DNA of 64,000 bases from Planctomycetota bacterium (GTDB taxonomy: Bacteria; Planctomycetota; UBA1135). The stretch covers positions 1-64,000 of the forward strand of contig JASFYO010000016.1 of the NCBI GenBank assembly GCA_045047305.1, in the 5' to 3' direction. Position numbers: made by a program. Below are positions 19,801-22,800 of this stretch, piece by piece; positions within the stretch are counted from its first letter, which is position 1; each line of letters begins with the position of its first letter.

Positions 19801-22800
19801 TAATCAAAGCTCGACGAATCGTTTGTTGAATCCACCACGTTGCGTAAGTAGATAACCGAAACCCAGCTTCTGGATTAAACTTTTCCACGCCCTTCAATAG
19901 GCCGATGTTTCCTTCTGCAATTAAGTCAGGAAGGGTTAAGCCACGGTTGCGGAATCGTTTGGCGACGGAAACAACGAGACGCAAGTTTGCACGAATCATG
20001 TGTTCGCGAGCGTCAACGTTTCCTTCTTGGACTTTTCGTCCAAGTTCAACTTCTTCCGCCGCTGAGAGCAACGGTACTTCGTCGATCTCACGGAGGTAGG
20101 CTTCTAGGCAGCGGTCTGATGCGATGGGTTTGGCTCCTGATGGGCGTAGAGTGACTCCCCGACATGGAGGGGCTCCATATCTGTGACTACATCGGCTGAA
20201 TTGAAGTTCCGCTTTAGATTATGGAACCTTTCTATTTAGTCCTACACTGAGCTAGACCGAAGGGAGAACAAATTGATTTCCCCTAGCCCATGACTACACC
20301 CTCACCGTGGGCCGATGCTGAACCGCGTCGGCGCTGGATACCCCCTGAAGAATTCGTTCTTATGCTTGAGAATTCAGGCCAGGGGTTCATTCAGGCGGTC
20401 GAGGCATTAGGCCAGCAGCCAGCGGAGTCTTGGGTAGAAGGCTTTCTCTCCAATCTTGCCAGAGAAGCCATTGCCCTGGAGCGCTTCCTTGATATTCACG
20501 GGGCAAAGGCAAATCAGGCTTTCTATGCATTAAGGAAATCAGTTGCATGCACCCTGTGGCTAAGTGAGGCCCTTTCCTGTTTGGTTCATTTGCGTGGACG
20601 CCTGGAAGTTTATCCGAGTTCCGATGAGTTTTGGACTCGGAATGACTTGCCGAAGAGGCTGAAATCTACGGTGAACGGGCTTGGTGAATTGCTCCTAGAG
20701 ATATCCCAAGAGCTTAAGCTTCAATGGGTTACGGCCGGTTGTGAATGGTCACAGGTCGGTGATTGGGAATTAGTATGCACGCTCCCCCCTTCGCGCATTT
20801 TGGTCGCAGACCGCCTCCGGGGCGAAGAAAAGGCCGAGCAAGGACAAGACCAATTGGTCGCCCCCGCCGCGCGGTTATGTAATCGATTTTTGGAGTTCTA
20901 TCGCTCCTGGGAGGTAATGAGCGGCAAGTCTTTTGAAGACCCGGCCGAACTCATCAAGTTTTTCGAAGAATTTTGCAAGGAGAGGACCACTCGATCTTTT
21001 AAAGCCCGCGCGCATAACTGGCAAAGCGATTATGACTCTCTTGTGTACGCCACCAAAGATGAGTTGGATTGGCCGGAACTTAAGTGCTTGCGAGGAGCCA
21101 TGAGCCAGTCTCTGCACCTTCTAGAAGCAATCGTTGCTCTGTCTCATCTGTTTGAGCGCCATCGTCCAGGACTGGTGTCCGCAAACGATGGGCTGGGTTA
21201 TTTTCTTGAGTCCGAACAATTTTTGAAACTAGTGGTGGATGGCTGCGTTTTGCCGGCATACCGTAGCTTAGAAGTCGGAGTTGAGGCCGCGGAAAGCCTT
21301 TTAAGTAGCCTTGCTAAAGAGACTTACATATTTGTTCAATTGCCGCCCGGAGTTCGCTTGCATGCCCGGCCACTGTCTCTTCTGGTTCGCCTAACCCAAC
21401 ATTTCGGCTTGCCGGTTACCATGAGCGTGAATGGCGCATCTGCATCCGCCGAAAGCCTGATCCAACTGCTTTTGCTCGCAGGACAGAACCCAGATGCAAA
21501 AGAATACAAGTTTGAGGGAGCGGCAATCGCACTTGACGGCATTCGACTCTTGTTTGAATCGAGCCTCGGAGAGAATGGGATTGAAGGCCTTCCAGGGGAA
21601 TTGGCTTTCCTGAAGGGATAATCAGTCCCCGGATTGCTTGGAATCGTTAACCCACTAAGTTAGGCTGGCGCGCAAGCATTATGGCTACAACTGGAAAACG
21701 ATTAGGTAAAGGAATTGGCTCTCTTCTCTCGAACCGGCACGGTTCTGAGGATGAAAGCGGTGACGGAAAGCTGTGGGTGCCCCTAGAGCAGCTGCAACCA
21801 AACGTTGAGCAGCCCCGGATCGCATTGGACCGCGGAATTGAGCGGCTTTCTGAGTCATTGCGGCGCCACGGCATGATGCAGCCGATTGTCGTTACGCTTC
21901 AGCAAGGCGGCGGCTACCAAATCCTTGCGGGAGAGCGCAGGTGGCGCGCCGCTAGACTTGCCGGCCTTGCGCAGGTTCCGGTAATTCTACGCGAAGGCGT
22001 CCTTTCCGGGGAGGAACGACTGGAGCTCGCCTTGATTGAGAATATTCAGCGGGAGGATTTAGATCCAATCGAGAAAGCCAAGGCCTGTTCGCGCCTTATA
22101 ACCGAGTACGGGCTTTCGCAAGAGGAAGTGGCAACTAAGCTTGGATACCAAAGGTCTACGGTTGCAAACCTGGTACGGCTTCTTGGCTTGCCGAAGGAAA
22201 TCCAGGAGGATGTTTCACGTGAAACAATCACGGCGGGTCATGCTAGAGCCCTTCTTAAGCTGAATGATAGCCCTTTGCAGGCCCAGGCATGGAAGGAGAT
22301 CGTAACGGGGGGCTTAACTGTGCGCGACGCAGAAAGCCTTTGTGCGCAAATCTCGAAGGGCCAGCGTGAGCCCAAGCACGTGACTCGAGGAGCAAAGCCC
22401 GCTTGGGCGGGGGAGTTCCAGGAAAAAATATCACGACGGCTTGGATTAAAGGCGGAATTGAGGCTGCATGCTCGCGGTGGCGGCAAGCTGATCCTTCACT
22501 TTTCCGAAATAGATGATTTGGACCGCCTAAGCAAAGGCCTCGGCCTCCCTTCAGAGACCGAGGAGCTTATGGGCGAATGATTTACGGGCTTAAAGGACCA
22601 CGGCCGAGGAAACCTTGTAGGTCACATCGGTTTGAGGTGTCGCTAGAGCATCTTGGAGTCCCTCTAGGCCTTCTACGATAGAGCCAAATACAGAGGAGGT
22701 TCCGTCCGCATTTAGGTTGTCTTGAATGAAAAAGACGACCGAGTCCGCTTCTTGGATGCCAGGTTCACCAGGCTTGGCGGTAGTGGAAAGCGCCCCAGCT

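Follow-up and report, generated by a model that had tools for sequence, protein, structure and literature searches.

The gene and its neighbours

The stretch of DNA that we analysed (the window, 64,000 nucleotides from a Planctomycetota bacterium) carries, at 20290..21621 on the + strand, a gene for a 443-aa protein, P0001, made of two helical bundles followed by an HPr domain. The open reading frame and its translation agree with an earlier note on this DNA. Aligned homologues share the start position of P0001, and the gene is single-copy in the genome. A sigma-70 family gene lies divergently upstream (19229..20158, − strand) and parB follows downstream in the same syntenic block (21681..22580, + strand). 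A scan of positions 20000-22800 returned no sigma-70-type promoter site, against 1.4 expected, and two terminator-like sites, against 3.7 expected.

The divergent sigma gene was found upstream in 18 of 20 sampled planctomycete regions (within 1.5 kb in 14 of these), and at 1.5 kb or less in 24 of 80 GTDB loci of the family. However, it moves as one block with pyrF, hemW, bshC, a metallophosphoesterase gene and parB, and it was within 1.5 kb in none of 55 loci from the other half of the family tree (a quick tree; several of these loci are short). The adjacency to sigma and parB that the earlier note had pointed out hence holds in one planctomycete clade and fails elsewhere; it is planctomycete synteny, and a partnership of either gene with P0001 is not implied. 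Outside the planctomycetes the neighbours are unrelated and differ from lineage to lineage, which fits a stand-alone regulator. No metabolic gene was a consistent neighbour among the loci compared.

The sigma gene invites comparison with the Rsd-HPr pair of Escherichia coli, in which a helical protein is governed by whether HPr is phosphorylated: according to a passage of PMC6055147, Rsd is bound only by dephosphorylated HPr, and an HPr-Rsd structure (4xwj) exists. By analogy, the bundles of P0001 could be an anti-sigma module that binds the neighbouring sigma-70 factor, to be released according to the phospho-state of the fused HPr. We consider this improbable: Rsd is a separate protein, the sigma link of our family is limited to one lineage and belongs to the conserved block just described, and no DNA- or sigma-binding motif was evident in P0001.

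The HPr domain and the paired bundles

In the AlphaFold model of P0001 (mean pLDDT 84.9, pTM 0.82), helices occupy residues 19-148 and 192-341 and an HPr-type domain begins at residue 344, as had been reported. This C-terminal domain (residues 344-428; 21319..21573, + strand) is an HPr with its active-site motif intact, in line with the claim of an unaltered His-Ala-Arg-Pro site. The model superposed on the HPr fold with a VIA Z of 11.8 and an rmsd of 1.8 (81 of 85 residues aligned), Foldseek against HPr structures gave a probability of 1.00 and a TM(target) of 0.83, and the family profile recovered solved HPr with a best E of 3.5e-12; HPr-type chains alone appeared at E < 0.01 in PDB sequence searches. 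His358 (codon 21361..21363, + strand), the equivalent of His15 in the H-A-R-P motif, is kept in 389/389 rows of the family alignment, and the Arg17 and Pro18 equivalents, R360 and P361, in 388/389 and 389/389. H358 and P361 are the only positions kept in every row, at ~25% identity across phyla. S389, at the position of Ser46, is kept in 340/388.

Fold, His15-x-Arg17-Pro18 and the Ser46 position are shared with HPr, NPr and Crh (PF00381, TIGR01003). Unlike these proteins, the HPr of P0001 sits behind 340 residues of bundles and is followed by a conserved tail, LP..L.YL, that extends beyond the HPr fold (21574..21618, + strand); family members also coexist with an ordinary HPr, and a long subfamily has an insert of approximately 80 aa within the HPr domain. 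Taken alone, P0001 scored 19.5 bits against PF00381 (E 0.001; Pfam cut-off 23) and 29.3 bits against TIGR01003 (E 6.3e-7; cut-off 47.9); its relatives P0020 and P0015 exceed the PF00381 cut-off.

Bundle 1 (residues 19-148; 20344..20733, + strand), supported by models, conservation and co-change, conserves E64, D68, G71-A72, N75, H100, R104 and Y108. Bundle 2 (residues 192-341; 20863..21312, + strand), supported by models and hhalign, conserves E231, R235, H242, Q245, D249, R268, H276, H286, R290 and H291. When aligned to each other with hhalign, the two gave a score of 20.4 (P 0.005), above 29/29 block shuffles; judged by this likeness, bundle 2 is probably an internal duplicate of bundle 1. 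N75 (382/384), E231 (386/389) and R290 (382/389) are nearly invariant. The best-conserved bundle histidine is H286, kept in 383/388 (codon 21145..21147, + strand), a candidate phospho-acceptor; it was absent from the residues listed in the earlier note. The histidines that were listed there as invariant are so among 18 close sequences, but less so over the 389 rows (H100 347/387, H242 369/389, H276 362/389). E279 is kept in 240/389, and position E238 is Lys in P0001. The bundles are net acidic, with a median charge of −6 and positive values in 34/389 rows, figures that are a sequence-level proxy and not a surface map.

Co-evolution sorts the conserved bundle residues into two pockets. One (H100/Q245/H276, pocket A) has been lost repeatedly, with at least 3 of 5 positions changed in 30/389 rows; the second (N75/E231/H286/R290/H291) is nearly invariant. 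Several pairs that span the bundles changed on shared branches: E64/R290 on 4 versus 0.12 expected, A86/H291 on 4 versus 0.38, H100/H276 on 7 versus 0.73 and R104/Q245 on 7 versus 1.0. With the 30 pocket-A loss rows taken out, the H100-H276 coupling dropped from z 7.9 to 1.3. Co-evolution also sets residue 357 of the HPr domain against residue 78 of bundle 1: each is the top co-changing partner of the other (6 shared branches versus 1.16 expected), and their coupling persisted without those rows (z 5.0). Co-change of H242/H276, H242/H291 and 78/422 was not significant. All these co-change pairs had been picked with the DCA of these data already in view, and their P values carry no correction.

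The conserved Glu/Arg/His pairs may instead be salt bridges with a structural role, zipping the bundles together. The HPr domain might then be a binding module and no more, unphosphorylated or phosphorylated without effect, with the His/Arg/Glu pairs serving cohesion. The pseudo-symmetric pairs E64-R290 and Q245-R104 would suit such an arrangement, as would the HPr scores below both cut-offs and the insert of the long subfamily. It is hard to reconcile, however, with the complete retention of His358 at such divergence, and we assign it little probability.

Comparison with known helical families

Profile searches placed the bundle region in no Pfam, NCBIfam or named Atlas family, and an Atlas search with the bundle region of P0129, PF00381 clusters set aside, gave no usable match. 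The earlier note had called the bundles HPt-like, with the caveat that their Z-scores might be generic and that an Hpt Pfam match was lacking. What P0001 shares with HPt domains (CheA P1, Ypd1, ArcB, YojN; PF01627) is the up-down four-helix bundle, a generic fold. Taken further, bundle 2 would be an HPt domain whose H242 passes phosphate on to receiver domains and so links the PTS with two-component signalling. CheA P1, YojN, HptB and Ypd1 were indeed among the fold matches (Z 7.7-10.3), H242-N-L-Q-S looks by eye like H-x-(I/L)-K-G and scored best of the eight histidines tested, and two Hpt proteins are encoded in this genome. However, designed and unrelated bundles reached Z 10.5-11.5, matching or beating HPt. 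CheA P1 matched mainly on bundle 1, where by eye no His appears to stand at the HPt site position, and the hhalign alignments to 30 Hpt domains (P 0.06 and 0.012) were out of register, that of bundle 2 (P 0.06) not falling on H242. The bundles of P0001 lack the H-x-x-K-G motif and any significant profile match, PF01627 being found neither in P0001 nor in 22 family members. Finally, the H242 window had a median of −20.3, the 92nd percentile of 16,817 background His windows, when the minimum of 30 real Hpt windows was +7.7. H242 scores below all 30 of these windows and lacks support as an HPt phosphoacceptor motif; the HPt label is unsupported beyond a generic fold, and we regard a phosphorelay through bundle 2 as quite improbable.

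A divergent CHAD module, in which the two bundles would bind polyphosphate under PTS control, seems extremely improbable. CHAD (PF05235), like P0001, has a pair of four-helix bundles that go back to an internal repeat, a probable one in P0001, and that carry conserved His and Arg; part of PMC6537752 describes the two bundles of CHAD as related by a pseudo-twofold. CHAD structures recurred among the non-HPr Foldseek rows (6rn5 with probabilities 0.84 and 0.57; 6qva), and 6qva matched bundle 2 with Z 8.2 and rmsd 4.7. Whole-domain superpositions, however, gave an rmsd of 17-19 Å with E 0.065 or worse, hhalign of the bundles against CHAD gave P 0.23-0.38 with no profile match, and the basic surface that CHAD requires contrasts with the acidic, differently packed bundles (median charge −6 versus +14 for 22 CHAD domains). 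CHAD occurs in 87/201 phylum genomes and is absent from this one, a distribution that is uninformative.

PRD is a short five-helix domain; P0001 has long up-down four-helix bundles instead. PF00874 gave no match at E <= 1 in P0001, P0015, P0019 and P0020 or at E <= 0.05 in 22 members, a PRD search of five genomes found none, and neither PRD nor Rsd chains were among the fold matches listed. The likeness to PRD regulators (LicT, MtlR, LevR) is a functional analogy only: these have duplicated helical domains with conserved histidines, which EI and HPr phosphorylate, as stated in a section of PMC8560693. Unlike them, P0001 has its HPr in cis and lacks an RNA- or DNA-binding domain. A likeness to the HPr-binding alpha-helical domain of Enzyme I was not found either (hhalign P 0.16 and 0.31 against 17 EI domains).

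HPr does occur inside larger proteins, such as sigma54 enhancer-binding proteins of Clostridiales and the FPr and DhaM-type multiphosphoryl transfer proteins (passages of PMC6615313 and PMC2405797). Those pair HPr with AAA+/HTH, EIIA or EI, in contrast to P0001, whose partner region has no named family. Databases label family members generically as 'HPr family phosphocarrier protein', as had been foreseen. In a mostly open literature, taken as main texts, we found no paper on the family, although fusions of this type might be listed in Table S2 of PMC2405797, and for the bundles we found no Pfam entry. As far as that literature goes, the family is unstudied: its HPr part is known, and its bundle pair belongs to no known family.

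PTS context and a proposed phosphohistidine switch

The family reaches far beyond the several planctomycete lineages named in the earlier note. It comprises 239 clusters at 50% identity and at least 582 confirmed GTDB loci, found from one motif, in Planctomycetota, Desulfobacterota, Nitrospinota, Spirochaetota and Moduliflexota; 35/201 sampled phylum genomes had bundle matches. Bundles and HPr travel together, as only 1 of 394 matches ended before the HPr part (328 aa; possibly a fragment). No longer fused forms (777-2215 aa) were present among 6652 candidates, which is weak evidence.

Parts of PMC13104625 and PMC2405797 describe planctomycetes, spirochaetes and related groups as retaining PTS phosphocarriers but having few sugar transporters, if any. 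In agreement with the earlier note, this genome (87.7% complete) has one ordinary HPr and no match to PF02378, PF03609 or PF03610, the three transporter families searched; two Enzyme I genes and three EIIA_2 genes are present, and one Enzyme I retains what we take to be the His and PEP-domain motifs. Among carriers, glucose/fructose-type EIIC (PF02378) was found in only 4/80, supporting the picture of an intact HPr joined to two His- and acid-rich bundles in mostly transporter-less PTS genomes. A separate HPr was found in 71/80, so the fusion is an addition and not a replacement. Enzyme I was present in 47/47 carriers from the GTDB scan (one other carrier, G048, had no match), but we rejected this co-occurrence as proof, the background being 94-98% (196/201 and 142/151 genomes). 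HPrK gave 7 strong matches in 80 carriers; an anticorrelation with the family was likewise rejected, HPrK being missing from the whole phylum sample (0/201), non-carriers included. In that sample S389 is, for the same reason, more likely structural.

Such PTS would need somewhere to send phosphate, and P0001 may be an enzyme or sink: with P~His358 as donor, the phosphate would be hydrolysed in the bundle pockets, where a metal might sit at H100/H242/H276/E279, or be transferred there to a small molecule. A transporter-less PTS would thus be drained in the way that SixA drains NPr. Transporter-less systems require a sink, and a passage of PMC6282199 states that before SixA 'no analogous sink for the PTSNtr has been reported'. 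The dense near-invariant polar residues look like an active site, helical register and co-loss bring three His and two Glu together in pocket A, and most carriers lack HPrK and EIIC. Yet pocket A is the one repeatedly lost, E238 is Lys in P0001 and E279 is poorly kept; no enzyme fold was prominent among the bundle fold matches, a consistent metabolic neighbour is missing, and HPrK is absent from non-carriers too. We find this explanation unlikely.

Our preferred reading, to which we give slightly less than an even chance, is that P0001 is a phosphohistidine switch charged by Enzyme I, its bundles either accepting the phosphate or sensing it, and that it resembles PRD regulators by analogy without being a PRD member. 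Within a regulatory PTS that has mostly no transporters, P0001 would serve as a second HPr, tethered to the bundles. Enzyme I would take phosphate from PEP and phosphorylate His358, a step that the invariant His-x-Arg-Pro and HPr chemistry make very likely. The HPr domain may dock on loop 71-78 of the duplicated bundle pair, as co-evolution and the confident full-length model suggest. The bundles would build two pseudo-symmetric polar pockets, of which the near-invariant one (E64, D68, N75, E231, R235, H286, R290, H291) could take the phosphate, most likely on H286, or read the phospho-state; the other (H100, R104, Y108, Q245, H276, perhaps H242) would be an optional site, lost by several lineages. 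Binding of the bundles to some partner would thereby be switched, so that the protein reports the PEP/pyruvate state much as a PRD regulator with a built-in HPr might. Comparisons of sequence, fold and neighbourhood revealed no output domain or partner.

A more specific version, possible but doubtful, makes the double bundle a new phosphohistidine acceptor, with transfer from His358 to H286 or H291, as the missing terminal acceptor or sink of the transporter-less PTS in several deep-branching phyla, or its exit to another phosphorelay. It would then be an output module of the PTS with no relation to EIIA, PRD or HPt. In a crude contact-based C-alpha embedding, which was unstable without the residue-78 pairs, His358 was nearest only to N75, F78 and E231 (10-17 Å) and lay 18-21 Å from H286, 18-19 Å from H242 and 21-24 Å from H291, so direct transfer in cis would need movement.

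Where transporter-poor PTS send their phosphate is largely open, as part of PMC6282199 says of the nitrogen PTS before SixA. The present family, a single soluble protein in hundreds of genomes and at least five phyla, couples an intact HPr with bundles that are conserved and fall outside known families, and makes that question testable. It is probably a new output switch of the PTS in bacteria mostly devoid of PTS sugar transporters.

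The HPr domain and its PTS context

P0001, a 443-aa protein, is encoded by an ORF at positions 20290–21621 of the plus strand, with the same start position in its close homologues. Its full-length AlphaFold2 model (18 sequences; pLDDT 84.9, pTM 0.82) comprises helical bundles at residues 19–148 and 192–341, then an alpha/beta domain from residue 344; the bundle region 15–343, modelled with 128 sequences, reached pLDDT 92.4 and pTM 0.92. The C-terminal domain is an HPr: it matched HPr with Z 11.8 and rmsd 1.8 over 81 aligned residues (VIA) and with a Foldseek probability of 1.00, and the family profile hit solved HPr structures at E 3.5e-12. 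P0001's sequence alone did not reach the Pfam and NCBIfam HPr cut-offs.

As the earlier note had proposed, the active site is kept. In our conservation set (389 rows, some near-duplicate, effective number 287; 394 hits minus rows with >25% gaps), H358 and P361 occur in 389/389 rows, R360 in 388/389 and S389, the Ser46 equivalent, in 340/388. Many members are already named "HPr family phosphocarrier protein" or similar by NCBI and JGI, as that note had cautioned. Bundles and HPr are seldom apart, only 1 of the 394 hits stopping short of the HPr part.

HPr fusions to EIIA or EI (passages of PMC2405797) and to sigma54 activators (passages of PMC6615313) are known; for the two-bundle plus HPr architecture, our literature search (few subscription journals, supplements outside its scope) found no publication.

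The window's genome (87.7% complete) encodes an ordinary HPr next to EIIA, three EIIA_2 genes, two Enzyme I genes and two Hpt proteins, and had no match to PF02378, PF03609, PF03610, PF00874, PF07475 or PF05235. A separate HPr, as claimed before, is present; the claimed lack of a PTS sugar permease holds for PF02378, PF03609 and PF03610 in this incomplete genome. Sugar-PTS enzymes are described as nearly absent from Planctomycetales and Spirochaetales in passages of PMC13104625. Among genomes carrying the family, Enzyme I occurred in 47/47, a separate HPr in 71/80, PF02378 in 4/80 and HPrK in 7/80 (strong) or 11/80 (E ≤ 1e-5), the 80 being 81 minus G141, with G247 alone counted for the identical genomes G115 and G247. 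Enzyme I was as frequent in non-carriers (196/201 and 142/151), and HPrK was not found across the whole phylum sample, so neither discriminates carriers.

The second Enzyme I paralogue (L003:1456–3189, contig C74, 577 aa) keeps the His motif and has altered PEP-binding domain motifs relative to the C36 copy (L004:121–1875), scoring 183 versus 315 bits against PF02896; it is possibly a pseudo-Enzyme I. Two Enzyme I hits were also seen in 9/9 sampled order-mates.

Bundle anatomy and relatives

Pfam, NCBIfam and the named Atlas families yielded nothing for the bundles. Aligned with each other by hhalign (63 columns, score 20.4, P 0.005; E64~Q245, D68~D249, H100~H286, R104~R290), they exceeded 29/29 block shuffles (maximum 16.5), which suggests an internal duplication.

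Their best-kept residues are D249 (388/389), E231 (386/389), N75 (382/384) and H286 (383/388), the best-kept histidine; R268 (383/389), R290 (382/389) and H291 (375/389) are kept as well. H242 (369/389), H276 (362/389), H100 (347/387) and E279 (240/389) are less so, and the histidines H100, H242 and H276, previously called invariant, deserve the term among close relatives but not across the 389 rows.

By mean-field DCA, the top pair was L124–G318, and the pairs between bundles (H100–H276, H100–G269, R104–Q245, E64–R290, K83–L284, A86–H291) fit an antiparallel packing of helices 76–104 and 263–291. Position 78 was linked with HPr residues 356, 357, 422 and 426. Shared changes, counted on a tree under a null that allows for branch propensity, numbered 7 against 0.73 expected for H100/H276, 7 against 1.0 for R104/Q245, 4 against 0.12 for E64/R290, 4 against 0.38 for A86/H291 and 6 against 1.16 for 78/357 (pairs picked after DCA from the same data, values uncorrected); H242/H276, H242/H291, R235/E279 and 78/422 were not significant. 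Without the 30 rows changed at ≥3 of H100, Y108, H242, Q245 and H276, H100–H276 fell from z 7.9 to 1.3, and 78–357 still gave z 5.0.

From these patterns we infer two pseudo-symmetric pockets: a putative pocket A (H100, R104, Y108, Q245, H276, perhaps H242), lost several times, and a putative pocket B (E64, D68, N75, E231, R235, H286, R290, H291), hardly ever lost. Separate subclades (P0072, P0074, P0078, P0081–P0084, P0087, P0089, P0092, P0095, P0096, P0102 and the P0161 group) have lost H100/Y108/Q245/H276 and retained His358 and mostly H286/R290/H291.

Since residue 357 adjoins His358, the HPr active site is probably close to the 71–78 loop. In a crude 80-contact embedding, unstable once the residue-78 pairs are removed, His358 lay 10–17 Å from N75, F78 and E231 and 18–24 Å from H242, H286 and H291; this points to no single acceptor and speaks mildly against phosphate transfer without movement.

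The bundles had been called HPt-like. The bundle-only model, whose fold matches fall mostly on bundle 1, resembles CheA P1 (Z 9.7–10.3) and YojN (Z 9.4), yet it matches designed bundles and a cytochrome subunit better still (Z 10.5–11.5), and Z below about 13 is common among helical bundles by the tool's own warning. When each bundle was compared by hhalign with an alignment of 30 Hpt domains, drawn from five carrier genomes, P was 0.06 for bundle 2 and 0.012 for bundle 1, and the phospho-His was aligned in neither case. By position weights, H242 came out top of the eight histidines tested; its windows, with a median of −20.3, reached the 92nd percentile of a background of 16,817 His windows, far under the lowest real Hpt (+7.7). 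The likeness is one of generic fold alone, HPt membership fails and the label should be dropped; an HPt relay is improbable. CHAD structures recur among the Foldseek matches, and a CHAD module is the least credible reading of all: profile P values were 0.23–0.38, whole-domain rmsd 17–19 Å, and the median charge −6 versus +14 for CHAD domains, for which a basic surface is the defining feature according to passages of PMC6537752. Comparison with the Enzyme I helical domain failed too.

Distribution and gene neighbourhood

A word-based search returned 20 proteins, matching the earlier count, but the family is broader than the few planctomycete lineages then envisaged. An unindexed search gave 239 clusters (50% identity), of which 175 had E ≤ 1e-10. 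With a 22-sequence profile, 727 of 8000 candidate proteins scored E ≤ 1e-20, and a single motif, to which P0001 itself does not conform, hit 587 GTDB stretches, 582 of them confirmed members. Titles of the 80 kept loci include Desulfobacterota/Deltaproteobacteria, Nitrospinota, Moduliflexota (KSB3), Spirochaetota and Planctomycetota. Of 201 genomes sampled evenly across the window's phylum, 39 matched, four by the HPr part only, leaving 35 from 14 families; order-mate family f3 had 0/3. In the phylum of G201, 11/151 matched, seed genome included. A quick tree groups by phylum, but needs 12 changes against a minimum of 8.

Stored proteins divide into 226 short and 48 long. The long form (about 500–546 aa; P0094, P0107, P0114, P0145 and related; loci L072–L088, L113, L115) carries an insert of ~80 residues within the HPr domain, after the Ser46 helix, without Pfam match, and occurs in Moduliflexota, Spirochaetota and Sedimentisphaerales. 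Two full-length copies were seen in each of G069 (C2 and C301) and G224 (L062 and L063); the latter, near-identical, may be a binning artefact.

The reported sigma-factor and parB neighbours belong to the planctomycete clade. Twenty of the 34 other carriers in the phylum supplied 20 regions; 18 of these contain a divergent sigma-70 gene (≤1.5 kb in 14), and 18 have parB no more than 3.5 kb away, both moving as one block with bshC, pyrF, hemW and a metallophosphoesterase. Sigma lay within 1.5 kb in 24 of 80 GTDB loci, all in that clade, and in 0 of the other 55 tree rows (some loci short), where neighbours vary by lineage (fabF with acyl-CoA ligase, kdsB, amidohydrolase with anmK, pdhABC, others). 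Gene context points to no partner. An Rsd-like anti-sigma factor, a reading that draws on passages of PMC6055147, is unlikely.

In the window, an origin-like block (11117–22580) runs parA, bshC-like, pyrF, hemW, sigma, the P0001 gene and parB, presumably preceded by dnaN, dnaA and a cysteine desulfurase-like gene; parA and parB lie ~5.5 kb apart on opposite strands. The bshC-like ORF (16178–17188) has 336 versus 543 aa and only a weak CC_BshC match; in L106:2–2331, bshC and bshB1 exceed NCBIfam cut-offs, marking bacillithiol biosynthesis genes in planctomycetes. In 5/7 Moduliflexota-type loci (L072, L073, L077, L078, L079) pyruvate dehydrogenase genes precede the family member and share its strand; four of the loci have pdhABC, and in L079 only the E2 gene is visible, at a contig end. 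This is a hint of a link to the PEP/pyruvate node in this lineage.

A possible Enzyme I-fed switch

Fold, motif conservation, distribution and co-change patterns are directly supported. His358 would very probably be phosphorylated by Enzyme I; that the HPr domain is instead an unphosphorylated binding module seems unlikely. We tentatively favor a switch in which pocket B would take or read the phosphate, H286 being the leading candidate residue, and so alter the binding of the bundles to a partner. The nearest working analogy is that of PRD regulators, in which EI/HPr phosphorylate histidines of duplicated helical domains (passages of PMC8560693), although P0001 has no PRD match. An enzyme or phosphate sink, which would answer the missing-sink problem stated in part of PMC6282199, is a less probable reading than the switch. 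The family would be an HPr-fused effector carrying an uncharacterised duplicated bundle module, for whose function the pocket-loss subclades offer a natural comparison set.
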